Part shown: positions 17,415 through 46,704 of the stretch, one piece after another
How the letters are laid out: each line of letters starts with the position of its first letter
How positions within the stretch are numbered: position 1 is the first letter of the stretch
DNA from: Candidatus Saccharimonadales bacterium
Lineage (GTDB): Bacteria > Patescibacteriota > Saccharimonadia > Saccharimonadales > EFPC-124
Length of the DNA: 64,000 nt
Direction: 5' to 3'
Assembly (NCBI GenBank): GCA_035457345.1
Contig: DATIBT010000033.1
Location: 2,390 to 66,389 of the forward strand
The notes under the pieces: generated by a model
Told to the model about the DNA's origin: nothing
What the model saw: only the letters and a program-made list of their open reading frames with translations
Databases searched by the model: none
Made by a program: the position numbers and the translations under genes

Positions 17415-17416
17415 AG

Positions 17417-30160: not shown

Positions 30161-30180
30161 CCCGCGGAGCAACAGTTGAA

Positions 30181-30213
30181 AGCCTCGGCCGCCCACCACG
30201 CGGGCGGCCGAGG
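30181..30213 (+). terminator. 13-bp GC-rich hairpin (gcctcggccgccc-accacgc-gggcggccgaggc) without U-tail, directly after the high-GC gene
   Basis: Perfect inverted repeat read in the sequence; this hairpin style is typical of high-GC Gram-positive terminators. Confidence 0.45.
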
Positions 30214-30243
30214 CCCCAACTATCCCCTGGCAGCCAGGTATTT

Positions 30244-31623
30244 ATGAGCAGTCCTCTTACGTTTACGCCGATTAAGCTTTACAATAGTGACATTATGCTT
30301 ATGTTTATTAAGCGCCTGTGGCACGACGCCGTACAGGGTGGCATTAAAGACAATGCCAGTGGCCCTCAGCGTGAGCTTGTCTATTTTATTAATGTGTATT
30401 CGTGGCTGGCTTTCTTGTCGTTGAGTGGTTTTGGCGTTCTGCACATTATCTCCGAAGGAAATCCGCAGTTAGGAAATCTTGAACTTCTTTGCGCCGCCGT
30501 TATCGTGTTGAATATGCTGGCACTGCGAGCCACCTACAACATTGCCATTGCTAGGTTTGGCCTCCTTGCCACTGTATTAACGGCACTCATTATTATGCTT
30601 ATGACCGGGGGCATGCAGAACACTGGCATTTTTTGGCTCTATGTATTCCCTGTCCTTGCATTCTTTTTGGCCGGGCGCCAAGGGGGTATTGCGTGGATGG
30701 CTGTGCTGTACGCAGCCATTTTCTTATTGTTCGCGCTTGAGAGGTACGAGTGGGTGGACATTCCGTATGCCCCTATTGTCTTGCGTCAGGCACTGATAAG
30801 CCTATTTGTGGTAACGATTGGCGTAGCCGTATATCAGCGCTCGCGCGATAAATATCAGAAAGAGGAGCAGGAAATTGATCAAGCTAAGAGCCAATTTGTG
30901 ACGCTGGCTTCGCACCAGCTCCGGACGCCCATTGCTGCGGTGAACTGGTTTGCAGAAATGCTCCTGAATGGCGATGCTGGCAAGCTCAACAAAGAGCAGC
31001 ACGATTACACGCGGCAGCTATACGCCAGCAACCGCCGGTTGTCTGGCATGGTAGATGTTATGCTACTTGTTTCCAGCCTGGAGCTCAATGAGTTGCGTAT
31101 TCGTTTGGAACCTACGGATATGGCGGCGTTGAGCCATCGGTCGTTAGAAGCGCAAATCCAAAAAGAGGGTAAGCACGACCTTCATATTGAAGAGCGGTAT
31201 GAAGATGGCTTGCCACGCATACGCGTAGACGCGCATGTCATGGGTATTATTATGCAGAATCTATTCTCGAACGCCCTTAAATATACTCCCAAAGGAGGCG
31301 CCGTAACAGTAACGATCAAGCGCAGCCCAGAGAAATTGACGATTGGCAGCAAGGGAAGCATAGAGATTGCGATAACAGATACAGGATACGGCATTCCTAC
31401 CTCACAACGGGACAAAGTGTTTGGCAAACTCTTCCGGGCAGATAATATAAAAATCAAAGACACTGACGGCACTGGCTTGGGGCTATATAGTGTGCGTGCC
31501 CTTTTATCGCAGGTGGGCGGCCGCATATGGTTTGAGTCCCAGGAAGACAAGGGCACGACGTTTTTTGTCCTTTTGCCTATTGAGGGTATGAAAAAACAAC
31601 ATGATTCCGAGGGAAAAAGGTGA
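30244..31623 (+). CDS. Sensor histidine kinase with N-terminal polytopic membrane sensor domain
   Basis: Six predicted TM helices, then HisKA (LASHQLRTPIAAVNWFAEML, phospho-His) and HATPase_c (N box NLFSNALKYTP, G1 DTGYGIP, G2 GTGLGLYSV). Start at ATG 30244 after the GC-rich segment. Confidence 0.85.
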   Translation: MSSPLTFTPIKLYNSDIMLMFIKRLWHDAVQGGIKDNASGPQRELVYFINVYSWLAFLSLSGFGVLHIISEGNPQLGNLELLCAAVIVLNMLALRATYNIAIARFGLLATVLTALIIMLMTGGMQNTGIFWLYVFPVLAFFLAGRQGGIAWMAVLYAAIFLLFALERYEWVDIPYAPIVLRQALISLFVVTIGVAVYQRSRDKYQKEEQEIDQAKSQFVTLASHQLRTPIAAVNWFAEMLLNGDAGKLNKEQHDYTRQLYASNRRLSGMVDVMLLVSSLELNELRIRLEPTDMAALSHRSLEAQIQKEGKHDLHIEERYEDGLPRIRVDAHVMGIIMQNLFSNALKYTPKGGAVTVTIKRSPEKLTIGSKGSIEIAITDTGYGIPTSQRDKVFGKLFRADNIKIKDTDGTGLGLYSVRALLSQVGGRIWFESQEDKGTTFFVLLPIEGMKKQHDSEGKR

Positions 31624-33524
31624 TGCATAAAGGTCTTTCATTACGGGTAAAACTTAGCTTGGCGTTTCTGTCGCTGGCCGTGCTAGTAGGCGCGGTGGGT
31701 GCGTTGCAAATTCAAACGCTCGAGCGCATAAGGACATTATTTGAAGACGTTATCACTGTTGATATTGGACGGCTAAACAAGATGCAGCTGGCTCACCAAC
31801 ACCTATTAGAGATGGAAGAAGAGCTTCTTCAGCATCAAATCGAAGGCACGGTGCCAGAGCACGGTGACGAAAAAGACGGTATTACCCACCAGGCCGAGGC
31901 AATCAAGAAAGAAATTAAAGAATATGCAGATTCCCCCCGGAATGGTGCGCCACTTGCACTAGATGTGGCGGCTACGAACGACACTATTGATAGGCTTGCC
32001 GCGCTTGCTCTCAGTTCAATTACGGCGACACACCATAACAACAAGGCACAAGCGCTCGCGGCCTTTGGTGAGTTCACTACGCTCCAAAGTCAGCTAGAAG
32101 GCGACATGGGACGAATCATTGCATCCGAGCGCGAGAGCATCTTAGGCGGCAGTGAGGAAGTAGTGGCAAGGATAAATGGGTTGGTCGCGACCGACATGCC
32201 CGTTGTGGGACTCATTATTGCGATAGCCGTGATCCTGGGGCTGTTGGTTGCCTCGCGTCTGACCAAGGCGCTCGCATTAGTCAGAAGAGGCGCTCAAGAC
32301 CTCGCCAATGGCAACTTGGCTAAGCGTGTCGAGGTGCGGTCCGGCGACGAGATCGGACAACTAGCCATGGCGTTCAACCAAATGGCTGATCGTTTGAGCG
32401 ATTCATACAGTCGCATCGCCCTGGAGGGTAAACGGGATGAAACTATTCTAGAGAGTTTAGGCGAAGGGCTTATTGCTCTCGATACTGACGCCCAGGTGGT
32501 GCTTATCAACTCTAAAGCGCTAGAGTTATTTGAGCTTTCAAGTCGCAACGGGGTTGTTGGCAAGAAGATTGCGAGCGCTGTGACCATCTATGGTGAGCAC
32601 GATGTTGTCTTGGAGCCCGAACAACACCCCGCCTTTGCTGTCCTGCAAACAGCTAAGCAGATTAACGAAAGCTACAGTTTTGTCCGTAAAGACGGGAAGA
32701 AAATTCTCATTAATATTATCGCCAGCCCGGTCCTGCTGGACGGAAAAGTTACCGGCGCAATTTTTGTTATCCGTGACGTCACCAAAGAGAAAGAGGTGGA
32801 CCGCATGAAGACCGAGTTTATCTCGCTCGCCTCCCACCAATTACGCACTCCCTTATCTGCCATTAAGTGGTTTACTGAGATGCTGGTGTCTGGCGATGCT
32901 GGAAAGCTTAATGCGGAGCAGTTGGATTTCGCTAAGAATGTAGCTGATTCTACAGAGCGCATGATTGAACTCGTTAATTCGTTGCTTAATATCTCCCGTA
33001 TTGAATCAGGACGCATTATTGTGGATCCTAAGCCAACCGACCTAAACGTTTTGGTGGGCGGCATTGTGAATGATCTTAAGGCTAAGACCGCTGAGCGGGA
33101 GCAGACACTCGTAGTCAGCATTCATAAGGATCTGCCTAAGATTAACCTTGACCCGCGATTAATCGGGCAGGTGTACATGAACTTTTTAACCAACGCCATA
33201 AAATACACGCCAAAGGGTGGTGAAATTACGGTGTTTGTCTCGCGCAAAGATGATGAGCTGGTGTCGCAGATATCTGACAACGGCTACGGTATCCCTAAGG
33301 CGCAGCAGGATAAATTATTCCAGAAGTTCTTTAGGGCCGACAATGTGTCGAAGGTGGAAACGGATGGCACCGGCCTTGGCTTGTACTTGGTGAAAGCAAT
33401 TATTGAATCGTCGGGCGGGCGTGTGTGGTTTAAGAGCGAAGAAAATAAAGGCACAACTTTTTGGTTTAGCTTGCCTATGAGCGGTATGAAAGCAAAGGAA
33501 GGGGAGGTTACGCTAGATGTCTAG
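31620..33524 (+). CDS. Sensor histidine kinase (TM-periplasmic-TM, HAMP, PAS, HisKA, HATPase_c)
   Basis: HAMP (LANGNLAKRVEVRSGDEIGQLAMAFNQMADRL), PAS-like segment, H box LASHQLRTPLSAIKWFTEML, N/G boxes (FLTNAIKYTP, DNGYGIP, GTGLGLYLV); ATGA overlap with the upstream HK. Confidence 0.88.
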   Translation: MMHKGLSLRVKLSLAFLSLAVLVGAVGALQIQTLERIRTLFEDVITVDIGRLNKMQLAHQHLLEMEEELLQHQIEGTVPEHGDEKDGITHQAEAIKKEIKEYADSPRNGAPLALDVAATNDTIDRLAALALSSITATHHNNKAQALAAFGEFTTLQSQLEGDMGRIIASERESILGGSEEVVARINGLVATDMPVVGLIIAIAVILGLLVASRLTKALALVRRGAQDLANGNLAKRVEVRSGDEIGQLAMAFNQMADRLSDSYSRIALEGKRDETILESLGEGLIALDTDAQVVLINSKALELFELSSRNGVVGKKIASAVTIYGEHDVVLEPEQHPAFAVLQTAKQINESYSFVRKDGKKILINIIASPVLLDGKVTGAIFVIRDVTKEKEVDRMKTEFISLASHQLRTPLSAIKWFTEMLVSGDAGKLNAEQLDFAKNVADSTERMIELVNSLLNISRIESGRIIVDPKPTDLNVLVGGIVNDLKAKTAEREQTLVVSIHKDLPKINLDPRLIGQVYMNFLTNAIKYTPKGGEITVFVSRKDDELVSQISDNGYGIPKAQQDKLFQKFFRADNVSKVETDGTGLGLYLVKAIIESSGGRVWFKSEENKGTTFWFSLPMSGMKAKEGEVTLDV

Positions 33525-33536
33525 GAGAATATCACA

Positions 33537-34298
33537 ATGAAACGGGCACGCTCGTTAGTACTATTTATACTACTGTTCAGCCTTATCTTGCCGGGGCTTA
33601 TGTGGTTTATGCCAGCCCCAGAAGTAAGCCGGTTTGGCCCCGATGGTTTTAAATTCCAGGCGGCTATAACAATGCTGCTTGCCTGGCTTCATGTAGGAGC
33701 GGCAATTTTGTTTGTGGCTGGGCTGGATGGATTTAAGGCAACGCTCAAGCGGGCGTACTTTGCTATATGTTTGGGATTGGTTGTAACGGCCGTTGCGGTT
33801 GCGCAGTTGCCATTGATCGCCATATTCAATTTATGGAATTCACCGTGGGCACTTAAAGGAGGCTTAACGCTGCCGATGATCGGTACGTTGTTGATATATG
33901 CTGGTGTTTACACGTTTGCAAGGGCGCTACAAATACGGCACGTGCCTACCTCGCCTTGGGTGGTGGTGCCGCTGTTTGTTGTAGCGGCAGGGGCGGTTGG
34001 CCTGGCCATGGACCCCTCTTTCGATCTCACTACTGCCGGCTACATAACAGGTCTTATACTGGGCACAGCAATAGTGTGGCTTACCTTCCGCATTAAGCAG
34101 ACGGCTGGGCCAGCCTACACAAATGCTCTTGCATGGTTTATGCTTCCGCCCCTGTTGAATACGTGCGGCGTGGGGCTGCTTATTATCTGGGCTCTAGCCA
34201 GAGAAGAGGCGCCTTGGTACGCAGCCATTCCTTTTGCATTTGTGGGCGCCTTGTATGTGAAGGCAGGGTACGCATTTAATAAGATTAAGGAGTATTAG
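33537..34298 (+). CDS. Polytopic membrane protein (paralog A)
   Basis: Seven or so hydrophobic helices; alignable with the protein at 34651 (e.g. FKATLKRAYFAICLGLVVTAVAVAQLPLIAIFNLWNSPW vs FKPTFKVAYLLLCAGVLCIGLGVVILPLITIFDPTESW). Confidence 0.5.
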   Translation: MKRARSLVLFILLFSLILPGLMWFMPAPEVSRFGPDGFKFQAAITMLLAWLHVGAAILFVAGLDGFKATLKRAYFAICLGLVVTAVAVAQLPLIAIFNLWNSPWALKGGLTLPMIGTLLIYAGVYTFARALQIRHVPTSPWVVVPLFVVAAGAVGLAMDPSFDLTTAGYITGLILGTAIVWLTFRIKQTAGPAYTNALAWFMLPPLLNTCGVGLLIIWALAREEAPWYAAIPFAFVGALYVKAGYAFNKIKEY

Positions 34299-34300
34299 GC

Positions 34301-34654
34301 ATGTCGTGGCTATCATCGTTCTTTGGCACCTCAGAAACTCGCCCCTCGACAAGTCCAGAAGGGGCGACGGCGGTAGATGTCATTACCTACCTTGCTTCGT
34401 TGGCTTCTAACCCTCGCGAGATTGACCCTATTCTAGACCGGCTTCGTGAAGTCACTGTCCGGCAAGGAAAAAATACCACATTAACAGAGGCTGATCAGGC
34501 CGCGCTGGCTGAAGTATTTCAGCAGCTCTTGCGCTATTTGGTAGAGCGGGAGCCGCTGCGTGCTTTTACTCGCGAGGAAATTTTAGCGAAGGTCCATGGG
34601 CAATTTAAACCTGCCCCAACCGAAACTGTATTTTGGGGAAAGGCGGGGTTATGA
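34301..34654 (+). CDS. Small soluble hypothetical protein between the two paralogous membrane proteins
   Basis: 117-aa ORF, tightly coupled (3-nt gap upstream, ATGA overlap downstream). Confidence 0.35.
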   Translation: MSWLSSFFGTSETRPSTSPEGATAVDVITYLASLASNPREIDPILDRLREVTVRQGKNTTLTEADQAALAEVFQQLLRYLVEREPLRAFTREEILAKVHGQFKPAPTETVFWGKAGL

Positions 34655-35451
34655 AAAGAATCGACCGATTATTATGGGCAATGGTAGCGATAGTGTTCGG
34701 GCTGTCATTGCTATCCCTGCTCATTCCTCAACCGTCAAGCAGCGTTGTAGACGTGCTTGCGTTCCACTTTGATTTGGCGCTGATACTCTTTGGCGCTGGC
34801 CTTTTTGTCCCGGCAGTTGTGCTGTTTGTGCGTGGCCTGCGCGGTTTTAAGCCAACGTTTAAAGTGGCTTATTTGTTACTGTGCGCCGGCGTGTTATGTA
34901 TTGGGCTGGGCGTAGTGATTTTGCCGCTGATAACTATTTTTGATCCTACCGAATCGTGGCGCAACAACCCCATAGTGGTAGTACTGCCCTTTATTGTCTC
35001 GGGCGCCTTGATTTATGCCGGCATGCTTTTATATGCTCGGCTTTTACAGGTGGCCAGTATTTGGTCTAAGCCGTGGTTTGTGCTGGCATTCATTCTGGGT
35101 GGCCTGGCCATTACCATTTTTTTGCCGCACGCAGACGTACCGGATGAAACCGCACTCGATGTATTAAATGCCATGGTAATGTGGGTAGGACTCTTTATTT
35201 TTGCGGCAGCCATGCTCATTATGGCTATTAAGCGCCAAACAAGTAGCATTTATACGAATAGTCTGGCTTGGCTGTTTTTTGCCTTAATAAGCAGTGTGCT
35301 TACGCCAGTGCTAACCGTGTTGTTTGGGCTGTTTGCATACGATGCATGGCTCAGCGATGCATTAGTGGATTTTTGTGTATTTATTTCGGGAGTGCTATAT
35401 ATGCGTTCTGGCTATGCATTCGTGCAGATTACGGCCCCAGATATTAACTAA
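34651..35451 (+). CDS. Polytopic membrane protein (paralog B)
   Basis: Start at ATG 34651 (ATGA overlap with the upstream stop, RBS-like GGGAAAGGCGGGG); paralogous to 33537..34298. Confidence 0.5.
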   Translation: MKRIDRLLWAMVAIVFGLSLLSLLIPQPSSSVVDVLAFHFDLALILFGAGLFVPAVVLFVRGLRGFKPTFKVAYLLLCAGVLCIGLGVVILPLITIFDPTESWRNNPIVVVLPFIVSGALIYAGMLLYARLLQVASIWSKPWFVLAFILGGLAITIFLPHADVPDETALDVLNAMVMWVGLFIFAAAMLIMAIKRQTSSIYTNSLAWLFFALISSVLTPVLTVLFGLFAYDAWLSDALVDFCVFISGVLYMRSGYAFVQITAPDIN

Positions 35452-35470
35452 GTTATGCTAAAGTAAAGGT

Positions 35471-35884
35471 ATGTCGAGAGAAAACCCAACCATTATGGTG
35501 GTGGAAGATGAGACTCTTCTGCTGCAAGCAATTACTAAAAAACTCAAATTATCCGGGCTTGACGTTGTCTCGTGCGCCAGTGGGCAGCAAGCGGTTGACT
35601 ACCTGAGTAACCTTGATGAACTCCCCGATGCCGTCTGGCTCGATTATTACCTGAAGGATATGAACGGGCTGGCATTCATGCAGACCCTCAAAGAGAATGC
35701 TAAATGGTCAGATATTCCAGTGATTGTGGTTAGCAACTCGGCTAGTCCGGAGAAGGTGCATAACATGCTGGGATTGGGCGCAAAGAAGTACATACTAAAG
35801 GCTGAATATCGTTTAGATGAAATTATCGAAATGATCCGCGACTTTATTAGGGACGGTAGCGACAGCAAGGAGGCAAAGAAGTAA
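35471..35884 (+). CDS. Stand-alone response-regulator receiver (CheY-like) protein
   Basis: REC domain only (137 aa): acidic pocket VVEDE, phospho-acceptor region AVWLDYYLKDMNG, conserved Lys in KKYILK. Confidence 0.8.
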   Translation: MSRENPTIMVVEDETLLLQAITKKLKLSGLDVVSCASGQQAVDYLSNLDELPDAVWLDYYLKDMNGLAFMQTLKENAKWSDIPVIVVSNSASPEKVHNMLGLGAKKYILKAEYRLDEIIEMIRDFIRDGSDSKEAKK

Positions 35885-36255
35885 TGGGCAAGGTATTGGT
35901 TATTGAGGATGACAAGTTTTTGGCAAGCGCGTACCGCGCCAAATTGACCAAGAGCGGGTTTGAAGTACAACTGGCTGGAGACGGCGAAGAAGGAATACAA
36001 ATGCTTGGCAGCTTCACGCCTGATATTATTTTGCTCGACCTTGTCATGCCTCGTAAGGACGGCTTTGCCACCCTCCCCGAAATCCGTAAGATTTTGAAAG
36101 ATGTGCCGGTAATTGTTACGTCTAATCTAGGGCAAAAAGAAGACCTCGATAAAGCCATGGCGCTTGGTGCTACTGACTACCTTATTAAGAGTGATCTTTC
36201 CATGGTTGCATTGATCAACAAAATAAACGACACCATAAAGCCCAGCTCTAGTTAA
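35884..36255 (+). CDS. Stand-alone response-regulator receiver (CheY-like) protein
   Basis: REC domain only (123 aa): VIEDD, DIILLDLVMPRKDG (phospho-Asp), TSNLGQ, ATDYLIK (conserved Lys); ATGA overlap with the upstream gene. Confidence 0.85.
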   Translation: MGKVLVIEDDKFLASAYRAKLTKSGFEVQLAGDGEEGIQMLGSFTPDIILLDLVMPRKDGFATLPEIRKILKDVPVIVTSNLGQKEDLDKAMALGATDYLIKSDLSMVALINKINDTIKPSSS

Positions 36256-36276: not shown

Positions 36277-37998
36277 ATGGTGGGCACCTACGCTGGTATA
36301 GATGACAAAAAGCTATACGATATTCTGAGCGAGCTTAATTATGTGCCCGAGGAAGAGCTCAAGCGAGCCCAGGCAATTGCAAGCGCTGAGAGTATCTCTT
36401 TATACGATGCCCTGCTAAAAAGTGACATTATATCCGACGAAAACCTAGGCAAGCTCATTGCCTATTCTTTGCAGTTACCGTTTACGTCGTTAGCACAAGC
36501 AAGCATTCCAGAAGACATACTTCACATTACCCCTCAGGCGGTGGCTGCGCAGTTTCATGTGCTCACATATGGCATGGACGAAGAGAAGGGTTTAAAGATT
36601 GCCGCCTCAAACCATTTGCAGACAGATGTATTTGACATGCTGGCTAAGAAAGCTGGCGTTAAGAACTACCGTGTCTTTTTTGCTACTGACCGAGATATAC
36701 AAGACGCCCTTCGATTGTACAAAAAAGAGTTAGGCCTGGCGTTTGAAAGTCTGCTTGCTTCTAAGACGGGGGACGTCCAGGTTGAAGTGCCGGTTGCGAA
36801 GATTGTGGATACGGTCATTGACTATGCTTATATTAACAAAGCTTCCGACGTGCATATTGAACCAACGCGCGGTGTGACCTTGGTGCGTTTTAGGATAGAC
36901 GGTATTTTGCATGACATGGTGCGTCTCCCTCATGCCACACATGGTCAGCTGGTAGCCCGTATTAAGGTGTTGGCACGCCTCCGTACAGATGAGCACTTTA
37001 GTGCCCAGGATGGCCGCATGCGAATGAGCGTGGAGCAAGAAGACCTCGACGTCCGCGTATCGATTGTGCCCACAGTAACGGGCGAGAAGGTGGTGCTTAG
37101 GTTGCTTTCCAGCCACAACAGGCAGTTTAGCTTAACGGATTTAGGCATGGGCGAAGCCGATCTTAAAAAGATCCGCGCCGGATTTATGCGTCCATTTGGC
37201 ATGGTTATGTCTACCGGGCCAACAGGATCGGGTAAGACCACCAGTATGTACGCTATCTTAAAGATCTTAAACACGCGCGAAAAAAATATTGCCACCATTG
37301 AAGATCCAGTTGAATACGAAATTGACGGTATTAACCAGATTCAGGCAAACCCCAAAACCAATCTGACATTTGCGAACGGCTTACGGTCGCTGCTTCGCCA
37401 AGACCCTGACATTATGTACGTTGGTGAAATCCGCGACGAAGAGACCGCCGACATTGCCATTAATTCTGCCATGACCGGCCACCTCGTGCTATCTACCCTC
37501 CACACAAACAATGCAGCCACGACGCTGCCACGGTTGATGGACATGAAGATTGAGCCGTTCTTGGTCGCAAGCACGGTGAACGTTATTATTGGCCAGCGTT
37601 TGGTGCGCAAAATCTGCGATCGCTGCCGGGTGAGTTTTGAGCTTAAAAAGACAGAGCATGGCTGGCACGGTGAAGAAGAGGCAACGGCAACGCAGCTCTC
37701 CCACATAGACCCTAAGCAACTGTCCCGGCACTTTGGCGACGGGTCGAGTGTGCGATTGTATAAAGGCAAGGGGTGTAATGTGTGCCACGAAACAGGCTAC
37801 CGGGGCCGCGTGGGAATCTTTGAAGTGCTAGAGGTGTCGCCAAAAATTGAGGCGCTTATTACCCAAAAGGCAGATGCCGATGCCATCTTACAGCAAGCAA
37901 TAAGCGAAGGTATGACGACCATGATGGACGACGGCTTAGATAAGGTGCAACAAGGCATTACGACCGTCGGTGAGATAATGAGGGCGACCCGGGCATGA
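36277..37998 (+). CDS. Second PilB/GspE-family secretion ATPase
   Basis: GSPII_E_N-like N-domain, Walker A GPTGSGKTT, His box, tetracysteine CDRCR...CNVCHETGYRGR; paralog of the pilB at 17417. Confidence 0.9.
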   Translation: MVGTYAGIDDKKLYDILSELNYVPEEELKRAQAIASAESISLYDALLKSDIISDENLGKLIAYSLQLPFTSLAQASIPEDILHITPQAVAAQFHVLTYGMDEEKGLKIAASNHLQTDVFDMLAKKAGVKNYRVFFATDRDIQDALRLYKKELGLAFESLLASKTGDVQVEVPVAKIVDTVIDYAYINKASDVHIEPTRGVTLVRFRIDGILHDMVRLPHATHGQLVARIKVLARLRTDEHFSAQDGRMRMSVEQEDLDVRVSIVPTVTGEKVVLRLLSSHNRQFSLTDLGMGEADLKKIRAGFMRPFGMVMSTGPTGSGKTTSMYAILKILNTREKNIATIEDPVEYEIDGINQIQANPKTNLTFANGLRSLLRQDPDIMYVGEIRDEETADIAINSAMTGHLVLSTLHTNNAATTLPRLMDMKIEPFLVASTVNVIIGQRLVRKICDRCRVSFELKKTEHGWHGEEEATATQLSHIDPKQLSRHFGDGSSVRLYKGKGCNVCHETGYRGRVGIFEVLEVSPKIEALITQKADADAILQQAISEGMTTMMDDGLDKVQQGITTVGEIMRATRA

Positions 37999-39035
37999 GC
38001 ATGAGGCTCTCGCGCAAAGAGAAATTGGCCGTTATATCCAGCCTTGCTACCATGCTTAATTCGGGCATCTCCATTCTGGAAGCCGTCGACACTCTGTTAG
38101 AGGACAATAAGGGGAGCTCACGTCGTCTCTTGTTACTATTCAGAGAGGCATTGAACGACGGCCACATGCTATCGACTGCCATGGAAAAAGCGACTGGCGT
38201 ATTTGACCCGGTAGACATAAACCTCATACGTGCCGCCGAAGAAGCGGGCACGCTCGACGAGGCACTGCACGATCTCACGCAGACCATTAAAAAAGACATG
38301 GCGTTTAGCGACAAAATTCGCGGCAGCCTTTTGTATCCAGTCTTTATTATGGTCATTTTTTTTGGTGTGTTGATTATGATATTGACCTTTGTGGTGCCCC
38401 GCATGTCAAAGGTCTTCTCTAGCCTCAGGGTTGACCTGCCTGCGCCGACTAAGTTTCTGATTGAGCTGTCCAATTTTATCTTAGCGAATTGGATATATCT
38501 GGTGGTTGTGGCGGTGGTGGCCGCGGTATTGTTGGTGCTATTTTATAAAACACAGAAGAAGCTGCTTTTTAACGCGCTGTCGCGTTTGCCACTATTTAAC
38601 ACATTGGCACAGCATATTGATTTCACCCGGTTCACTCGCAGTATGGCATTACTGCTGCGGGCGGGCGTGCCGGTCGCAGAGGCGCTCGATTTATCCCAAA
38701 AAGTTGTCATACGGCACGACGTAAGTCACGCCATTGCCCGTATGAAACAAGGGGTGAACACTGGCCACCCTATGTCCGAGGGGCTGAAGGCATCGCATAT
38801 TGCACCCTCGATCATGGTGCACATTTTACAGACCGCCGAACACAGTGGCACACTCGAAAAGACCATGCAGGAGCTTTCCGAGTATTTTGAAACTCAAGTG
38901 GCGCGCCGCTTAAAGGCAATCACTACGCTTATAGAACCGGTGCTGATTGTAGTGATTGGTGTGTTGGTGGGCGGCATGATGATGGCGGTAATTGCACCAA
39001 TCTATAACATCATAAGCCAAATTGGCTCGAGGTAG
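37995..39035 (+). CDS. Second PilC/GspF-family platform protein
   Basis: Two GspF-type repeats with TM segments, 346 aa; ATGA overlap with the upstream ATPase gene. Confidence 0.85.
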   Translation: MSMRLSRKEKLAVISSLATMLNSGISILEAVDTLLEDNKGSSRRLLLLFREALNDGHMLSTAMEKATGVFDPVDINLIRAAEEAGTLDEALHDLTQTIKKDMAFSDKIRGSLLYPVFIMVIFFGVLIMILTFVVPRMSKVFSSLRVDLPAPTKFLIELSNFILANWIYLVVVAVVAAVLLVLFYKTQKKLLFNALSRLPLFNTLAQHIDFTRFTRSMALLLRAGVPVAEALDLSQKVVIRHDVSHAIARMKQGVNTGHPMSEGLKASHIAPSIMVHILQTAEHSGTLEKTMQELSEYFETQVARRLKAITTLIEPVLIVVIGVLVGGMMMAVIAPIYNIISQIGSR

Positions 39036-39529
39036 TGGCTATGCATGTGCCACGCTCCAGCGCCAGGCAGCCAGGGTTTACGCTCGTTGAGCTTTTGCTT
39101 GTTATGGGGCTGGTGGCGGTCCTTGCCGGAATAACATCGGTTAACCTGTTCAGCCCGCAAACCAAAGCCAACATAAACAGCCTAACAGACCGGCTTGCCG
39201 CAGATATTAAGAGCCAACAAATCAAGGCCATGTCTGGTGACAGTATGAGCGCCAGCGCGGCACAGGAGCACGGCGTGTATATCCAAACTGGCACCTACAC
39301 TCTATTTAAAGGGACAGCTTATAGTGGTGCAGATACCGATAATATCCCCATTGCCAGCGAAGGCGGCGTCACGCTCAGCACTACCTTTCCGTCTACACAG
39401 GTGGTATTCGACAAGGGCAGCGGCGAAGTCATTGGCTTCACGAACGGCTCAAATACTATTACACTCAGCGGTTCGGGGGAAACAAAAACAATAACCATTA
39501 ACCGTTACGGGGCGGTGACGGTCAACTGA
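39035..39529 (+). CDS. Pseudopilin / minor pilin (GspH/FimT-like)
   Basis: Prepilin motif RQPGFTLVELLLVMGLVAVLAGI; 164 aa. Confidence 0.7.
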   Translation: MAMHVPRSSARQPGFTLVELLLVMGLVAVLAGITSVNLFSPQTKANINSLTDRLAADIKSQQIKAMSGDSMSASAAQEHGVYIQTGTYTLFKGTAYSGADTDNIPIASEGGVTLSTTFPSTQVVFDKGSGEVIGFTNGSNTITLSGSGETKTITINRYGAVTVN

Positions 39530-39530: not shown

Positions 39531-42002
39531 ATGTATAAGCAGCGCGGACAAACAATCATTGAGCTTCTGGTGGCGATAGGCATTTCAGCCATTATGTTGC
39601 CTGCGCTCGCTACTGCAGTGTTTGCGTCACGCGAGGGGCGGGCGCAAGATGCTGAACGCCTTCAGGCGGCAGCGTTATTGCGAGAGACTGATGAAGCGGT
39701 TCGTTCTGTGCGCGAAAAGGGGTGGGCCGCCTTCGCCGTTAACGGTACATACCATCCAGCCATAAATATAGCGGCATGGAACTTAGTCGCAGGGTCGGAG
39801 GTGGTGGGTAACTTTACACGCCAGGTGGTGATATCAGACGTGCAGCGTAATGCGGCTGGAGCCATTGTACCGAGTGGGGGTACGATTGACCAATCGACTA
39901 AAAAAGTAACGACAACGGTGTCATGGTCACAGCCAATGAACGGGTCGCTTAGCACTGAAACGTACTACCAACGCTATCTGGGTAATGCTGCCTGGGCACA
40001 GACAACTCAGGCTGAATTTAACGCGGGAACCAAAACTAATACAACCGCAACCTCTACCGGGGACGGCCAAGTTGAATTGGCCGGTGGCGGAGGCGGAAGC
40101 CACGTGCAGACAGCCGGCTCTAATAATGATGCTAGCGCCACGACTATCGCACAAGCCCTTCCGGCAAATGTGAACGGCGAGAGCTTAATTGTCGCAAGCA
40201 TATCTTGGGATACCACTTCTTCTACTACAGTTACCTGTTCTGATAATCAGAATAATACCTATACTACCGTCGTTAATATTAACGACACGACTAATACCCA
40301 GGCGCTGGCAATTTGTTACGCATCGAATGTCCCAGCTGCGGCTACTACTGTTACTGCTACGTTTGGCGCCGCATCTACACTACGTCGAATCACGGTAAGC
40401 GAGTACAGTGGCGTGGCGGCCGTGGTGCCGGTGGATGTGAGCAAAACAAACATTGCCAACGGTACAACGGCCACAGATAACATTACTAGTACTGCCGCCA
40501 CAACTACGGCTGCAAACGACCTTATTTACGGTGCAGTGGTCGAAACATCGGCAGGGACGGCGACGATCACGGGCGGCACCGGCTTTACGCAACGCAATAC
40601 AAATGCTACCGATACGACGCTTGCGGTGCAGGATCGTATTTTAGGGACTGCTGGCTCTACCTCCTCGACACACACCTTCAGTGCTGCTCTCAGATATGCC
40701 GCAGGGATGGTGGCATTCAAGACGAAGTCGTCAACGGCCAATTGGGCTTCTCCTTCTGTTGGCGGCACGTATGATGCGAGCGGTACTCAGGATGCGCTCG
40801 ACGTATTTACTGCAGGTAACTACGCCTATTTATGTAACGGTTCGGTACTGACGATTTTGAATATCTCAAACCCGACCTCGCCAACGTTGGTCGGTACCTA
40901 CACGGCGTCATCAACGGTGCGGCATGTGTACGTTGATGGTAATTACGCTTATTTATCAACGGCAAGTGATACTGCCGAGCTCACTATTGTAAACATAACA
41001 AATCCCGCAAGCCCGACCCTTGCTTCGTCGGTCAACCTAACCGATACCAACGACGGCTTCGCAACATTTGTAACCGGTGGATACGCCTATGTTGGCCGCG
41101 CTCTCGACACAACCACAGGAACGAATGAATTCTACATTTTAAATGTTACCAATCCTGCCAGTCCTTCCGTATTGGGCAGCGTCAACTTAACCGGCGCAGT
41201 AAACAACATAAAAGTAAGTGGCAACTTCGCTTTTTTGGCAACTACTATTGATACGCAAGAGATGGTGGTCATTAATGTTACCAACAAAAGTTCGCCCACA
41301 TTGTCGACGAGTTACAACGCCGCAGGCACGTCAGATGCTAACGATCTTGGTATCCTGGGGACCGTCTTATACGTGGCAACAGTAGCCAATGCCTCTGGCG
41401 CCGAGGTGTTCGCACTTAATATAACTACGCCAACCTCACCGGCACTTTTAGGCACATACGAAACGGGGGCAAACGTAACCGGTGTTTCGGCAGTTCCTAA
41501 TAATTTGTTTTTATCGGTAGCGAATCAGCTGACGGTGTTGAATAATTCCAATCCGAGTAGTTTGCAGCTAAGGTCAACATTGGGCTTTGGGTCCCCGGCT
41601 AACGACGTTAAAGCCTGGGGCGATTATGTGTACGTCGCTACTGCCAGTAATACGCAGGAGATGGTGATTGTGGCGCCAACATTTGCGTCGAGCGGGTATG
41701 CGACGTCGGGTAGTTTTGATTCATCTACATTCGATGCCGGTGCTAGCGCGGCGTTTAACTATCTTACCTTTACGATCACAGAGCCGGCGAGTACCAACAT
41801 CAGCTTCCAGCTTGCCACTAACAACGATAACGCAACGTGGAACTATGTAGGCCCAGACGGTACGGCCTCTACCTTCTATACCTCGGCTCAGACCATACGC
41901 CTGAATACCGTTGGCCGTTATTTACGGTACAGAGCCGCCTTTACGGGACCGGGCACGTCGACCCCGGTGTTAAGTGACATATCGATAAACTATTCGCCAT
42001 GA
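39531..42002 (+). CDS. Giant prepilin-like protein with LVIVD-type beta-propeller repeats (putative pilus tip or surface adhesin)
   Basis: N-terminus MYKQRGQTIIELLVAIGISAIMLPAL (class III signal with Glu5). C-terminal half carries six or more repeats of the LVIVD pattern (GNYAYL...LTILNISNPTSPTLVGTY; TIVNITNPASPTL; YILNVTNPASPSVLGSV; VVINVTNKSSPTLSTSY; VFALNITTPTSPALLGTY; LTVLNNSNPSSLQL). Confidence 0.7.
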   Translation: MYKQRGQTIIELLVAIGISAIMLPALATAVFASREGRAQDAERLQAAALLRETDEAVRSVREKGWAAFAVNGTYHPAINIAAWNLVAGSEVVGNFTRQVVISDVQRNAAGAIVPSGGTIDQSTKKVTTTVSWSQPMNGSLSTETYYQRYLGNAAWAQTTQAEFNAGTKTNTTATSTGDGQVELAGGGGGSHVQTAGSNNDASATTIAQALPANVNGESLIVASISWDTTSSTTVTCSDNQNNTYTTVVNINDTTNTQALAICYASNVPAAATTVTATFGAASTLRRITVSEYSGVAAVVPVDVSKTNIANGTTATDNITSTAATTTAANDLIYGAVVETSAGTATITGGTGFTQRNTNATDTTLAVQDRILGTAGSTSSTHTFSAALRYAAGMVAFKTKSSTANWASPSVGGTYDASGTQDALDVFTAGNYAYLCNGSVLTILNISNPTSPTLVGTYTASSTVRHVYVDGNYAYLSTASDTAELTIVNITNPASPTLASSVNLTDTNDGFATFVTGGYAYVGRALDTTTGTNEFYILNVTNPASPSVLGSVNLTGAVNNIKVSGNFAFLATTIDTQEMVVINVTNKSSPTLSTSYNAAGTSDANDLGILGTVLYVATVANASGAEVFALNITTPTSPALLGTYETGANVTGVSAVPNNLFLSVANQLTVLNNSNPSSLQLRSTLGFGSPANDVKAWGDYVYVATASNTQEMVIVAPTFASSGYATSGSFDSSTFDAGASAAFNYLTFTITEPASTNISFQLATNNDNATWNYVGPDGTASTFYTSAQTIRLNTVGRYLRYRAAFTGPGTSTPVLSDISINYSP

Positions 42003-42496
42003 TACAACATGCTAACCAAAAAGGCTTTACTCTTGCCGAACTCCTCATTGTCATGGGGCTTATGTCGATGTTCATGTTGGTGCTGACCGATGTGTTTACG
42101 GCGGCAGTGACAGTACGGAGTGAGTCAGAGGCAACGTCTGCCGTGGCGAATGACGGACGGTTTTTATTATCTCGTCTCAGCTACGATATTGAATGTGCCA
42201 GCTCGATTACCACCCCTGCCAGTTTAGGGGCGAGCGGCGCCAGTCTTGCAATGGTCATAGACGGCGTGACGCATACCTACGCACTTTCGGGCGGAAACTT
42301 ACAGCTCACCAATAACCTCGGCACGAATAATCTTAACGGCAGTGAAACCACCATATCCGGTCTTACTTTTCAACGACTCGGCAACGCCGGTGGCAAAGAT
42401 ACGATACGGCTAAGTCTGACTGTTACGAGCGACGCCATCCGCGAAGGCGGATCGCCAGAAGCCGAAACATTCACCACTACTGTGGGGAGGCGGTGA
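41999..42496 (+). CDS. Pseudopilin / minor pilin (PilW/GspJ-like)
   Basis: Prepilin motif NQKGFTLAELLIVMGLMSMFMLVL; ATGA overlap with the upstream gene. Confidence 0.7.
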   Translation: MIQHANQKGFTLAELLIVMGLMSMFMLVLTDVFTAAVTVRSESEATSAVANDGRFLLSRLSYDIECASSITTPASLGASGASLAMVIDGVTHTYALSGGNLQLTNNLGTNNLNGSETTISGLTFQRLGNAGGKDTIRLSLTVTSDAIREGGSPEAETFTTTVGRR

Positions 42497-42885
42497 TGAA
42501 AAGGAGTACTACGCATGCGCAGTCTGGTCAGGCGCTCGTGGCGCTGCTCTGCTTTATGGCTATGGCCATTACCATCACGACCGCTGCGGTTATCGTGACG
42601 CTGGTCAATGCCCAAACAACCTCCAAATATACATTAGGCCAAGAGACGCTTAGTATTGCTGAGTCAGGCATCGATAATGCTATGCTCCGGCTGGCTCGCG
42701 ACCCTGCATATACCGGGGAGACGCTGACGGTCGGGAACGGAACTGTTACAATAACCGTAAGCGGTTCACCCACTATAACCATTACTTCGGTTGGTACTAT
42801 GGGCAATTTCCGCAGGACGATAGAGGCTACTGCCTCTAGGACCAATAACACGCTCGTAATCTCGAGCTGGAAAGAAACGCCATAG
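42493..42885 (+). CDS. PilX/GspK-like minor pilin
   Basis: Hydrophobic N-terminal helix without Glu5 (SGQALVALLCFMAMAITI) followed by SIAESGIDNAML (PilX_N-like AEaG motif). Confidence 0.5.
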   Translation: MMKRSTTHAQSGQALVALLCFMAMAITITTAAVIVTLVNAQTTSKYTLGQETLSIAESGIDNAMLRLARDPAYTGETLTVGNGTVTITVSGSPTITITSVGTMGNFRRTIEATASRTNNTLVISSWKETP

Positions 42886-42886: not shown

Positions 42887-43444
42887 ATGATTTTCCAGAA
42901 TAACCCTACTGTTGCTTTGCATGTCACCCGCGAGGGGCTGACCGGCTATACTAAATCTGGTAAAAATGGCCATAGCCAAAAGTTGTCGTTTCCGCCAGAA
43001 GTAGTGCGCAACCTAGAAGTAGTAGACCAGCCGCAGCTCGCCAAGCTCGTTGCAACATTTGCAGCCGAAAATAAACTGCACGGCCAGCGGGTGGTCATTT
43101 TATTGGACGATTCCGTTATTTTCCAAAAGATCGTGCCGGCGGCGGAGGAAATAAAACAGCCGGGGGTAGTGGCAGATTTCGAGCATAAAGTGCCATTCGA
43201 TCCCGAAAAGCGGCGAGTGATCACCCTGCACCCTAAAGACCAGCTCGTCATTCTTGGCACGAATAGAGTGTTGTACGAGACGATTGCTACCGCCCTCCAG
43301 ACCGTCGGTGCAAAAGTGTTGGCTGCTGCTCCTATGGCAATTTATGGGAAGGGCAAAGGGGGGCAATTAAATCGTGAAACCCTCGCACCGGTGTTAAACG
43401 ACACTCGCAGGGCAGAGGCTGCAAATTTCTTGCACGTCAATTAA
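42887..43444 (+). CDS. Hypothetical cytoplasmic protein in the pilus-like operon (possibly a truncated PilM/GspL-like assembly factor)
   Basis: No TM; the N-terminus VALHVTREGLTGYTK weakly resembles the PilM N-terminal strand-loop; speculative. Confidence 0.3.
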   Translation: MIFQNNPTVALHVTREGLTGYTKSGKNGHSQKLSFPPEVVRNLEVVDQPQLAKLVATFAAENKLHGQRVVILLDDSVIFQKIVPAAEEIKQPGVVADFEHKVPFDPEKRRVITLHPKDQLVILGTNRVLYETIATALQTVGAKVLAAAPMAIYGKGKGGQLNRETLAPVLNDTRRAEAANFLHVN

Positions 43445-43501
43445 TTGACTTAACGACCGAGTCAGGTAATATTAAGAGTAGAGTAAAAAGGGTATGCTTT
43501 T

Positions 43502-43975
43502 ATGCAAATTGCGAACAGGCAAAAGGGCTTTACATTAATTGAAGTGCTTGTGGTGATCGGTATCCTCGCGGTACTGCTCGCATTAGTGTTAATTGCGGTG
43601 AATCCGCGGCAACACTTTATACAGGCCAATAACACACAGCGGCGTTCAGATGCTAACGCAATCCTGAATGCTATTGGGTCGTACATGTCCCAAAACAAGG
43701 GCCAATTGCCAGCTGGTATCGATGGGACGGTCAGGACAATTACATCGACCGCTGGAGCTAGCAACATTAACTTGTGTACTGCTTTGGTGCCCACCTATAT
43801 TGCTGACATTCCGTTAGACCCAGTCACCGGCACCGAGACTCCCGCCGGTTCACAGTGTACAACGGGTGGTGCTACCTATAGTAGTGGCTACACGGTAACA
43901 ACGACCGGTGGTAACCGAGTCACCGTAGCTGCGCCAGCTGCCGAGAACGGCGAAACAATTAGCGTTACCCGCTAA
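43502..43975 (+). CDS. Type IV pilin (likely the major pilin of the second system)
   Basis: RQKGFTLIEVLVVIGILAVLLALVLIAV canonical prepilin leader; RBS-containing 57-nt gap before it; terminator after it. Confidence 0.85.
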   Translation: MQIANRQKGFTLIEVLVVIGILAVLLALVLIAVNPRQHFIQANNTQRRSDANAILNAIGSYMSQNKGQLPAGIDGTVRTITSTAGASNINLCTALVPTYIADIPLDPVTGTETPAGSQCTTGGATYSSGYTVTTTGGNRVTVAAPAAENGETISVTR

Positions 43976-44076: not shown

Positions 44077-46704
44077 ATGTGCGGTATCGCTGGTTATTTC
44101 GGGTACTCCGATGACAAACAACTCCTAAAAACAATGAACGCTGCCCAGGCGCACCGTGGGCCCGACGGCCCCGGCTACTTTACCGACGGTCCGGTTGGTT
44201 TTGCGCATCTGCGTTTGGCCATTATTGACCGCGCGCATGGCATGCAGCCAATCACCGATGCCAGTGGCAATTACACGGTCATCTACAACGGCGAAATTTA
44301 TAACTACCTCTCACTCAAAAAAGAGCTAGAAGACGCGGGCCGTACATTTAAGACCGAATCCGATACAGAAGTTATCGTGGAGGGCTTTGCGGCGTGGGGC
44401 GCCGATATATTCGACAAGCTCAACGGTATGTTCGCCGTTGCTATCTGGGACAAGAGCAAAAGCCAGCTTATCTTGGCGCGCGATCACTTTGGCATAAAGC
44501 CGCTTTATATAGCCCGCGATGGCAAGAACCTGTTGTTTGCCTCAGAAATTAAAGCGTTGCTGGCAACTAAAAAGATTGAAACGTCACCCAATGACCGTCT
44601 TATTTACCGCTATTTGCGGTTCCGCATTCATGAAGATTCGGCCGAAACATTCTTTACCGGTATAGAAAAACTCATGCCAGGCGAAATGATGGTGGTTGAT
44701 AAAAATGGTGCGACACGTTCGCAATTTACCACGTTTGTCGATGATCTTGCCAAACAAGGCAATAAAACACAGCCCTACACGCAATCTATCACCGACGAAT
44801 ACGCCAAACGGTTGACCGAATCTGTCCGCATGCGCCTCATGAGTGAAGTGCCAGTTGGCACCTGCCTATCCGGCGGCTTAGACTCGTCGGCTATCATGCT
44901 GACCATCAACAAATTATTGAACGAGAAAGATGCTGCCACTCAATCTGTCGGCGCGCTACAAAACACCTTTAGCGCCGTTTTCCCTGGTTCAATTAATGAC
45001 GAAGAAAAATACATAGACGCCGTGCTCGCACAAGCCAAAGGCAAGGTAGCGGAGCACAAGATTTACCCCACGGCGGACACTTTTGCCACTGACCTAGAAG
45101 ATTTTATCCGCACCCAAGAAGAGCCGACTATTAGCACCGGCCCCTACGCCCAGTATAAAGTTATGGAAGAGGCCGCCAAGCACGTCACGGTGCTGCTCGA
45201 CGGCCAAGGGGCAGACGAAATGCTCGCCGGTTACTACCCCTACTATTTCGTATATTTGCGTCAGCTGAAGCGCCAAGGCCGCTACCTTAAAATGATGGGT
45301 GAAATGCTGCGTTCTACCGATGTCCTTTTCCGTTTCCTGCGGTTCCGCCTGTACGACAAGCTGAACTTCCGCAAAAGAGTCGGCATAAGTGAATTGCTCA
45401 ACAGCACATTCAAGCAAACTCACTCCGCTGAGACGTTTGCGCCCGTGCCCGACGACCTAAAGAAACGTTTTATAGAAGACTTGTTTCATAATAGCCTGCC
45501 GGCGCTCCTTAGGTACGAAGACAAAAATACCATGCGCTTTAGCTTGGAGGGCCGCGTCCCATTCCTCGACAAAGAAACGGTGACATTTTTGTTTGGCCTG
45601 AGCGACGAAGCTATTATTCGTGGTAGTTGGAACAAGCGTATTTTGCGTGACGCCACAAAGGGGTTGCTGCCGGAAGCGGTACGCGCACGCCGCAATAAAA
45701 TCGGCTTTACAACTCCTGAAGTTGAATGGTTCAAGCGCCTTAAGACCCGTTTTTACGGTATCTTCCTGAGTGAGAGTTTTGCTAACCGCCCTTACTTCAA
45801 CCAGCAAGCGGTACTAAGCGCGTTTGAAGGTCATATTAAGGGCCGTAACACCACTGATACTATGATTTTTTGGCGTATGCTCAATGTTGAGCTGTGGCTG
45901 CGTGAATTCTTCGACGAAAAAGCACCGGAGCAACCGGTACACGAAAAAACCGACCTCGAACCTAACAAAGAAAAGCAGCTCGATCTTGTGGCAAACGGCA
46001 AAACCTACCGCCGCTATCCTCTGCGCACCAAAATGGTTGCCGCTACAGACGAGCTGGCTCCATTTGTCGCGGACCGCCTGAAGGATTTCTTCCAGACATT
46101 ACAGGCTTCTGACCACAAAGCCTACATGCAAAAGGACTGGCGTTTGTTTATTAGCGAAAAAGTAGTCGCGATTACCCAGGGCCGTTCCTACTTTATCTGG
46201 GATATTAAGCCTGGCTTTTGGGCGCGTACCCTCAGTAAATTTGTGGTTAAAACGCCATATGGGATTGGCCTGGGCAGCCCATGGACCATGCAGCTTGCCA
46301 TAGAAGAAGCCGGCTTGACGCGCATTTTATTTGCCTCCGTGGGGGGTGCGGTAGGCAAGGTGCTCGGCAAGAAAGGGGTGTTTTATGAGCTTGCCGGCGC
46401 GAATGTCCGCGCCATTGACGGCCCGACCGAATACTCGGTGTACCCCAGCAATGTTTCGGCTAAATTGCCACCGAAAGACCCAACCAAAGTGGCCGCTCAG
46501 CTCGATGCTGCTATTCGCGACGTCCTCCCTGCTGAAGCTGTCGAGCACTTCAAGGGCGTTGTAGTAATTGACGCTAATGACCTGGGCCGTAATGTTCTTG
46601 GCCATAATACCGACCACCATCCAGCGGACCTAGAGGCTGTGTTTGCCGATAACCCCCTTGGGCAGGGGAGCGAACAAACGCCGTTATGCGTGGTGTTCGA
46701 GTAA
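44077..46704 (+). CDS. Asparagine synthetase (glutamine-hydrolysing, AsnB-like) fused to a C-terminal CofE-like (F420-0:gamma-glutamyl ligase family) domain
   Basis: N-terminal Ntn-hydrolase MCGIAGYFGY (Cys2 nucleophile) and the AsnB synthetase PP-loop TCLSGGLDSSAI. C-terminal roughly 230 aa show CofE-family motifs: ISEKVVAITQGR (cf. SKAEGR), NVRAIDGP, GVVVIDANDLGRNVLGHNTD (cf. ITDTNGR). Confidence 0.75.
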   Translation: MCGIAGYFGYSDDKQLLKTMNAAQAHRGPDGPGYFTDGPVGFAHLRLAIIDRAHGMQPITDASGNYTVIYNGEIYNYLSLKKELEDAGRTFKTESDTEVIVEGFAAWGADIFDKLNGMFAVAIWDKSKSQLILARDHFGIKPLYIARDGKNLLFASEIKALLATKKIETSPNDRLIYRYLRFRIHEDSAETFFTGIEKLMPGEMMVVDKNGATRSQFTTFVDDLAKQGNKTQPYTQSITDEYAKRLTESVRMRLMSEVPVGTCLSGGLDSSAIMLTINKLLNEKDAATQSVGALQNTFSAVFPGSINDEEKYIDAVLAQAKGKVAEHKIYPTADTFATDLEDFIRTQEEPTISTGPYAQYKVMEEAAKHVTVLLDGQGADEMLAGYYPYYFVYLRQLKRQGRYLKMMGEMLRSTDVLFRFLRFRLYDKLNFRKRVGISELLNSTFKQTHSAETFAPVPDDLKKRFIEDLFHNSLPALLRYEDKNTMRFSLEGRVPFLDKETVTFLFGLSDEAIIRGSWNKRILRDATKGLLPEAVRARRNKIGFTTPEVEWFKRLKTRFYGIFLSESFANRPYFNQQAVLSAFEGHIKGRNTTDTMIFWRMLNVELWLREFFDEKAPEQPVHEKTDLEPNKEKQLDLVANGKTYRRYPLRTKMVAATDELAPFVADRLKDFFQTLQASDHKAYMQKDWRLFISEKVVAITQGRSYFIWDIKPGFWARTLSKFVVKTPYGIGLGSPWTMQLAIEEAGLTRILFASVGGAVGKVLGKKGVFYELAGANVRAIDGPTEYSVYPSNVSAKLPPKDPTKVAAQLDAAIRDVLPAEAVEHFKGVVVIDANDLGRNVLGHNTDHHPADLEAVFADNPLGQGSEQTPLCVVFE

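Follow-up and report, generated by a model that had tools for sequence, protein, structure and literature searches.

A minor pilin with a nested LVIVD beta-propeller in a Saccharimonadales type IV filament operon: a candidate tip adhesin

Modular pilins display adhesive modules, probably at the filament tip, and some carry peptidase modules (PMC8179133). The 2021 catalogue of such proteins by Raynaud et al. lists in its Dataset S1 30 proteins that combine IPR012902 with IPR013211 (in rows of 8, 8, 7, 4, 1, 1 and 1), and its text names an 860-amino-acid (aa) pilin of this N_methyl plus LVIVD type from Candidatus Falkowbacteria (PMC8179133), LVIVD being IPR013211 (PMC10210494). In TM7x (Nanosynbacter lyticus), the fraction of host cells that are bound falls from 10.6% to 4.6% when the RCC1-type pilin PilX2 of type IV pilus (T4P) T4P-2 is deleted (PMC12206443). 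In this article, I will discuss an 823-aa protein encoded on contig DATIBT010000033.1 (assembly GCA_035457345.1) of a Candidatus Saccharimonadales bacterium; the whole stretch analysed, 64,000 nucleotides (nt) from position 2,390 to 66,389 of the contig, is referred to as the window, and all coordinates count from its first letter. A first-pass annotation of the window had considered a propeller displayed on a pilin to be an unusual adhesin architecture, but with 30 N_methyl plus LVIVD proteins catalogued (PMC8179133) and PilX2 as a precedent (PMC12206443) it is not. I consider it probable that the 823-aa protein belongs to a compact type IV filament in Saccharimonadales as a modular minor pilin and serves as its tip-displayed adhesin, a function that I infer from the architecture and operon described below.

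The open reading frame runs from an ATG start at 39531 to 42002 on the forward strand, in agreement with the coordinates of the first-pass annotation, and an identical NCBI entry exists (HSE61384.1, from a Candidatus Saccharimonadales-type metagenome-assembled genome, MAG) under the name 'prepilin-type N-terminal cleavage/methylation domain-containing protein'. The N-terminus, MYKQRG/QTIIELLVAIG (the slash marks the predicted cleavage site, with Gly at -1 and Glu at +5), had been taken for a class III signal, and this is borne out both by a Pfam match to N_methyl and by the conservation of Gly(-1) (G6) and Glu(+5) (E11), each kept in at least 90% of a 54-sequence family alignment whose full-length members all read G/[QASF][TSA][LI][VI]E. 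These 54 sequences come from the relatives found in a search space of 5.8 billion proteins, where at least 120 further cluster representatives stand beside the identical entry. The leader itself, read from the sequence and placed by the N_methyl match, is MYKQRG (aa 1-6; 39531..39548, +), ending in the Gly at -1. When both families were checked in Pfam, as had been proposed, each scored above its cut-off, LVIVD (PF08309) with 111.4 bits against 20.2 (E=1.2e-32, five stretches) and N_methyl (PF07963, aa 1-23) with 23.2 bits against 21.2; the protein is not among the listed matches of a TIGR02532 scan. The combination of a prepilin signal with LVIVD repeats is real and far beyond chance.

An AlphaFold2 (AF2) model of the protein, built on the family alignment, has a mean predicted local distance difference test (pLDDT) score of 86.3, and over aa 403-718 (about 316 aa; 40737..41684, +) it contains 28 strands in seven groups of four, mostly with pLDDT above 90, which I read as seven four-stranded blades of a predicted propeller, the last completed by the strand at 403-414. 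Foldseek against the PDB returns seven-bladed propellers with template modelling (TM) scores of 0.7-0.77, including the TLE1 WD40 domain (TM 0.74 to the target), and further propeller matches are PorZ and the Sphingobium phosphotriesterase 5hrm. The proposal that LVIVD-type repeats form a beta-propeller is therefore well supported by Pfam and by the AF2 model alike, and the 'at least six' repeats counted by eye correspond to seven blades in the model and to five repeats by Pfam; however, the extent had been given as the C-terminal 450 or so residues, and the repeats are neither so long nor C-terminal. Between 40830 and 41620, six blades have Asn where the LVIVD consensus has Asp, which creates N-x-S/T sequons (LNISNP, VNITNP, LNVTNP, INVTNK, LNITTP and LNNSNP), and the whole protein holds 24 sequons, with 14-20% Thr in each domain. 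O-glycosylation has been predicted for the large minor pilins of TM7x (PMC12206443).

The propeller had been viewed as a C-terminal fusion, but it turns out to be nested, and it is followed by a 103-aa beta-sandwich that is not of LVIVD type. The modelled protein begins with a 55-residue N-terminal helix (9-63) and a pilin beta-sheet (strands 72-147, pLDDT 67-92), a 'lollipop' of a long alpha1 on a beta-sheet as expected of a pilin; together they make up the pilin module (aa 7-150; 39549..39980, +), with a hydrophobic alpha1 that carries the Glu at +5 (E11). After a few short strands between aa 153 and 183 come an all-beta region (192-396), the propeller, and a beta-sandwich (726-822). The decisive comparison is with eight short orthologues of just 293-325 aa that occupy the same operon slot, since these align to aa 1-186 and 721-823 with 48-55% identity and leave one clean gap, aa 187-720, while orthologues of about 620 aa lack only aa 190-402 or thereabouts. 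The alignment thus places a first sandwich segment at aa 153-186 (39987..40088, +; motif W-x-Q-T-T-x-x-E-F-x-x-G ... V-E-L) and a second at aa 721-823 with the stop codon (41691..42002, +; motif TWNYVGPDG ... RYLRYR ... NYSP), the latter having a weak F5/8 type C match (E=0.036). Going by these sequences, there is an insertion of about 535 aa in what would be a single loop of one beta-sandwich, holding first a beta domain without a Pfam model and then the seven-bladed LVIVD propeller. The C-terminal motif [AST][TG]W[NS][YF]xGPDG occurs at 380 loci in GTDB genomes, and some of these have the orthologues of 293-325 aa.

Furthermore, the two sandwich segments are not confined to pilins, as they also stand on either side of a Kelch propeller in a Dehalococcoidales MAG, within a non-pilin surface protein of 1,312 aa (locus L036), which supports the view that they form one domain that tolerates nested propellers. 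At this locus (6987-10925), and also at L038, L050, L058, L059 and L064, the split sandwich occurs in non-pilin surface proteins in which the N-terminal motif W-x-Q-T-[TS]-x-x-D-F lies right behind a signal peptide and the C-terminal motif TWNYKGPDG follows about 350 aa further on, so that the Kelch propeller is enclosed, and fn3-like repeats and then a C-terminal membrane anchor come after the sandwich.

The first of the two nested domains (aa 190-400 approximately, 205-210 residues and all-beta; 40098..40730, +) had gone unnoticed in the first-pass annotation, and the domain outline given there was incomplete in this respect. It is absent from the orthologues of about 620 aa and has no Pfam match. 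Modelled on its own by AF2 (pLDDT 85.8, predicted TM score 0.85), it finds no matching fold in the PDB with Foldseek (best E 0.007, TM below 0.3), and yet among the predicted viral structures of BFVD it has 71 matches at E<=1e-3, the best with E 1.8e-16, a query TM score of 0.82 and 31% identity; the named ones, 14-18% identical, are 'minor tail protein' entries from phages of Mycobacterium and Gordonia. A phmmer search of 1.84 billion representatives with this domain gives 3,869 cluster representatives at E<=1e-3, where it stands in one to five tandem copies in proteins of 160 to 2,993 aa, in the company of the extracellular modules PKD, He_PIG, fn3, Big_7 and LamG and of Kelch and phosphoesterase domains, as well as in one other pilin. 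I regard it as a candidate new domain family.

Considering these partners together with the structure matches of the propeller, one may ask whether the head is a pilus-displayed enzyme, for instance a hydrolase acting on host envelope polymers. The best structure match outside the WD40 proteins is indeed 5hrm, a Sphingobium TCM1 phosphotriesterase with seven blades (by Foldseek, E 4e-10 and a TM score of 0.48-0.50 to the target), a faint sequence match (E=0.68) comes from a profile search against PDB sequences, peptidase modules are known in modular pilins (PMC8179133) and the insert domain occurs beside phosphoesterases elsewhere. However, a TM score to the enzyme of only about 0.5 and conserved polar residues that are Glu, Asn and Tyr at repeat positions, once per blade, in place of a single active-site cluster, make this reading very improbable. 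A phosphotriesterase-like enzyme in particular was rejected, with a single His in the propeller (H465, in 7 of the 54 relatives) and no conserved Cys. Among PDB sequences, the family profile otherwise found just alpha1-helix matches to geopilins, and noise.

The 823-aa gene is the second of four minor-pilin slots in an operon of eight genes, in the order pilB, pilC, pilin, 823-aa protein, pilin, pilin without Glu5, 185-aa protein and major pilin, and the first-pass annotation was right to place it among small pilin-like genes, given that its 164-aa and 165-aa neighbours both have N_methyl and that a PilB/GspE ATPase and a PilC/GspF platform gene precede it. The assembly ATPase, of PilB/GspE type with an MshEN N-domain, is encoded at 36277..37998 (+; T2SSE E=1e-123, MshEN E=9e-9), followed by the 346-aa platform protein of PilC/GspF type, which is N-terminally short, at 37995..39035 (+; T2SSF E=7e-49, two stretches). 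Its alignment to the GspF model starts only at position 58, and the 406-aa PilC of another locus in the window aligns over its full length. From pilC to the 130-aa gene the operon is tightly packed, with stop and start codons that are shared, overlapping or 1 nt apart. The first minor-pilin slot holds a 164-aa protein (39035..39529, +; G/FTLVE, N_methyl 27.7 bits) with weak, sub-threshold GspH (E=0.012) and ComGD matches and a Glu5 kept in about 30 loci; the third a 165-aa protein (41999..42496, +; G/FTLAE, N_methyl 31 bits, Glu5 conserved) whose gene overlaps that on each side by 4 nt; and the fourth a 130-aa pilin-like protein (42493..42885, +; G/QALVA) that has no Glu at +5, with A, S or T at this position in 28 of 32 loci, a trait of the GspK/PilX type, and an N-terminal sub-threshold GspK match (E=0.007).

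The same eight-gene order recurs in about 30 loci of Saccharibacteria, Woykebacteria, Roizmanbacteria, WWE3, Nomurabacteria and Microgenomates MAGs, and across these the first three minor pilins keep their Glu5, giving the pattern E, E, E, no-E; a four-member priming or tip set with the large protein in its second slot is supported. In the operons of the known core sets, this second slot is held by GspI, PilV or ComGE. The labels GspH-, GspJ- and GspK-like that had been given to the flanking pilins fare less well than the arrangement itself: operon order and Glu5 pattern fit, but the labels are not verified, because the family-specific models match GspH and GspK below threshold only, and profile searches of the 165-aa pilin gave no evidence of GspJ. 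The PilV and ComGE models do not match the 823-aa protein either, and each matches 7 of the 54 family members, always below cut-off; taken together, weak sub-threshold PilV, ComGE, GspH or HpsB matches occur in 7-8 of the 54.

Two genes complete the operon. The 185-aa protein (42887..43444, +) has a TIGR01175 (pilM) match at E=0.004, far below cut-off and to the N-terminal part of PilM; it shows no membrane segment by eye, and most syntenic loci have it in the same place, with an identity of only 22-42%. After a gap of 57 nt, the last gene encodes a 157-aa pilin and candidate major pilin (43502..43975, +; G/FTLIEVLVVIGILAVLLA..., N_methyl 38.2 bits, GspG-like below threshold), whose alpha1 is the most conserved of the operon over the roughly 30 loci (GFTLIELLVVIGILAILLAI), as would fit a major pilin. 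The gap contains a promoter-like TTGACT-16-TAATAT (43445-43472) ahead of this gene; promoter-like sites in the region number 18 against 15.2 in shuffled sequences, and promoter and terminator counts are near chance.

This operon also bears on whether there is a filament at all, since a protein such as this one could be a surface protein with a pilin anchor, not polymerised into any long fiber and held instead in the membrane or in a short pseudopilus stub. The archaeal 'bindosome', in which sugar-binding proteins carry prepilin signals, would be a parallel. In favor of this are a very large head, with about 670 aa past the pilin module, an N-terminally truncated platform protein and an ATPase that cannot be placed as type IVa pilus (T4aP), and the weak F5/8 type C match and the carbohydrate-type partner domains would suit a cell-surface binding protein; moreover, a six-frame search of the window for PilD and PilT signature motifs found none, in the operon or elsewhere, the only hits being two PilB Walker A boxes. 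However, the operon has a typical major pilin and a full set of four minor pilins with the Glu5/no-Glu5 pattern of filament-priming complexes, and Saccharibacteria do make T4P filaments, which have been seen by cryo-electron tomography (PMC12206443). I therefore hold the anchored protein to be unlikely and continue to favor a minor pilin of a filament.

A similar question is whether that filament could be a pseudopilus like those of competence (Com) or type II secretion systems (T2SS), involved in DNA uptake or protein export, with the 823-aa protein in a non-adhesive role such as spanning or opening the wall or capturing DNA. The order of ATPase, platform and pilins in an operon without PilM/N/O and PilT does resemble comG operons, there are sub-threshold matches to ComGA, ComGB, ComGD and ComGE, and natural competence, with an enrichment of competence genes, is a trait of Patescibacteria (PMC11665869). 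However, the major pilin gene is last and not directly behind the platform gene, heads that can be exchanged (lectin, LamG, propeller) are typical of adhesins that bind a ligand and not of DNA receptors, and the window has a second T4P locus, beside recA, that looks closer to the TM7x recAX locus. Candidate phyla radiation (CPR) cells are also thought to be without an outer membrane, which makes a T2SS unlikely. All in all, this alternative seems to me quite unlikely, and the adhesive minor pilin is again the preferred reading.

That second T4P locus (9535-19264 on the reverse strand, together with 5446-6501 and 7678-9237 on the forward strand) includes PilB (17417-19264), PilC (16194-17414), PilM (10679-11746) and PilN (10083-10682), a modular pilin of 522 aa with N_methyl and CarboxypepD_reg (13931-15499), a 197-aa pilin-like protein and a protein of 524 aa that matches PilX_N faintly, and it is adjoined by RecA and by a 519-aa lamin-tail-domain protein. 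The recA neighbor recalls 'locus two' of TM7x (pilB2, pilC2, pilM2N2O2 and recAX). Around the operon of the 823-aa gene, the region upstream of pilB (29563-36255) holds two histidine kinases, of which one has a MASE6 sensor, two single-domain response regulators, and two multi-pass membrane proteins that are similar by eye (33537-34298 and 34633-35451); kinase and regulator genes lie ahead of the operon at loci L001 and L002 as well, which suggests regulated expression. Directly downstream (44077-46704) is an 875-aa fusion of GATase_7 and Asn_synthase, a glutamine-dependent asparagine synthase, with a match to F420-0:gamma-glutamyl ligase in its C-terminal region that is just below threshold (24.3 bits against a cut-off of 25).

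Returning to the 823-aa family, its head is not constant. The members fall into size classes near 620 aa, 840 aa (18 clusters, with the 823-aa protein among them) and 940 aa, and the orthologues of this one slot may lack an insert altogether or carry a single propeller, a pair of propellers, the insert together with a propeller, LamG or DUF4082/lectin heads: two relatives (P0025 and P0026) have two propellers with ten LVIVD stretches, another (P0084) has a propeller and LamG, and in P0094 and P0106 DUF4082/lectin-like domains take the place of the propeller; pilin module and C-terminal segment stay the same in all of these variants. The propeller is also the most variable domain in sequence, with a mean pairwise identity of 44.2% compared with 55.5% for the pilin module and 56.3% for the second sandwich segment. 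An exchangeable head among orthologues of the same slot would suit a module that determines specificity. In a neighbor-joining tree of PilB, which carries no support values, the loci of the 823-aa protein and of forms of 624, 846 and 625 aa (WIN_823, L018_624, L001_846 and L005_625) make up one clade, so head content changes between close relatives, and in the same unsupported tree propeller forms are basal with short forms nested among them. The short forms may accordingly be losses and not the ancestral state; a history in which the short form came first and the propeller was inserted later was not adopted, the topology making loss at least as likely.

How, then, might such a protein work? 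Cleavage after Gly6 would fall to a prepilin peptidase whose gene lies elsewhere in the genome, and the alpha1 helix would dock with the three neighboring minor pilins to form an assembly-priming complex. Since a complex that primes assembly should end up at the tip of the filament, and a head of this bulk would be tolerated only there, the propeller and the phage-tail-like domain would be displayed at that position and could bind a surface ligand, most plausibly a component of the cell envelope of the epibiont's bacterial host; cultivated Saccharibacteria live on Actinobacteria (PMC11665869), which is what makes a host-envelope ligand the most plausible target. Ligand binding is suggested by analogy with Streptococcus sanguinis PilB and PilC, with PilY1 and with TM7x PilX2, and the outcome would be a PilY1-like adhesin function built directly into a core minor pilin. 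The pilus-tip adhesin that the first-pass annotation had put forward as a candidate thus stays the most reasonable reading of a prepilin with a propeller in a pilin operon, with adhesion, the tip location and processing of the prepilin as its conditional parts.

Several observations weigh against this proposal. The N_methyl score clears its threshold by just 2 bits, and the window has neither a prepilin peptidase nor a PilT motif by six-frame motif search. The PilB and GspE equivalogs tie on the ATPase at 491 bits, both below cut-off, and with all models below cut-off the ATPase and platform were assigned to none of the T4aP, T2SS and Com classes. The I-like assignment of the second slot is suggested by gene order and weak matches, and the packing of aa 153-186 with aa 721-823 is predicted from alignments. 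LVIVD repeats have no established function (PMC10210494). As for the insert domain, tblastn against 50,697 phage genomes found nothing, and I accordingly claim a resemblance in fold and not homology to the tail proteins of cultured phages; the likeness is one between two predicted structures, at the level of the fold, and the named phage matches may reflect the abundance of actinophages in the structure library.

A more daring reading, tentative and on the whole doubtful, is that the second-slot minor pilin is a plug-in scaffold in which one sandwich loop gains, loses and exchanges whole receptor-binding heads, be they one or two LVIVD propellers, lectin/DUF4082, LamG or the roughly 205-aa domain with the fold of a phage tail protein, and that the tip acts like the receptor-binding device of a phage in setting host range. 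If true, the non-pilin sandwiches of Dehalococcoidales would make the split sandwich a general and undescribed 'host domain' for the display of propellers. CPR/Patescibacteria live attached to other microbes, and where their recognition of hosts is concerned, a recent perspective points to minor pilins at the tip as the proteins that should be tested (PMC11665869). The 823-aa family offers a concrete candidate for host recognition outside the oral TM7x model: a conserved slot whose head differs among close relatives would allow head type to be correlated with host or habitat, and the heads could be expressed alone for binding assays. Annotation may profit as well, from a widespread extracellular domain of about 205 aa that lacks a Pfam model and from a split beta-sandwich in which propellers are nested.

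It remains to set the protein beside the systems it resembles. The LVIVD or choice-of-anchor B surface proteins have the repeat family in common with it, and 23 of the 54 family members show sub-threshold choice_anch_B matches; however, they have Sec signals and anchors of other kinds, and the 823-aa protein is anchored by its pilin module. Membership of choice-of-anchor B (TIGR04312) was rejected at 34.4 bits against a cut-off of 100. Similarly, the PilY1/PilC tip adhesins (IPR008707) have a seven-bladed propeller at the pilus tip together with core minor pilins, as proposed here, but PilY1 is a non-pilin that docks non-covalently on minor pilins and the 823-aa protein is a pilin with its own prepilin signal. 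PilY1 membership was rejected too, there being no PilY1 or Neisseria_PilC match in Pfam at E<=1 and only LVIVD and N_methyl.

With the core minor-pilin sets GspH-I-J-K, FimU-PilV-PilW-PilX and ComGD-GE-GF-GG the operon shares four consecutive small pilin genes, the last without Glu5, with ATPase and platform genes adjoining, and Joint Genome Institute annotation names several members of the 823-aa family 'PilV'. The second-slot subunit of a core set is normally its smallest; here it is the largest, and the family-specific models are all below cut-off.

PilX2 of TM7x, too, is a Saccharibacterial minor pilin with a seven-bladed beta-propeller as its head. However, it is built from RCC1 repeats, has no predicted PilD signal and is encoded in a locus of five pilins away from the machinery (PMC12206443), whereas the 823-aa protein has LVIVD repeats, the conserved G/E5 motif and a place inside the machinery operon; TM7x pilin loci are organized differently from this operon, Pfam lists no RCC1 families in the 823-aa protein, and no protein returned by a scaffold-only search is named as Nanosynbacter.

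Also close in design are the modular pilins of S. sanguinis, PilB with its vWA module and PilC with its lectin module, which likewise place a bulky head on a prepilin motif and pilin module (PMC8179133), and the 823-aa protein falls within the definition of a modular pilin as an N-terminal IPR012902 joined to a domain that is not specific to pilus biology. It is a modular pilin of the expected sort and introduces no new principle. In the literature searched, I found no paper on LVIVD pilins as a topic of their own, nor a description of the nested placement in a split sandwich, of a series of head states in one slot or of the roughly 205-aa domain that has no Pfam entry. Compared with the known modular pilins, then, the 823-aa protein is a design variant, in that its module is not appended by a linker but nested, along with a second domain, inside a beta-sandwich, and in that the content of the head varies among the orthologues of a single operon slot.

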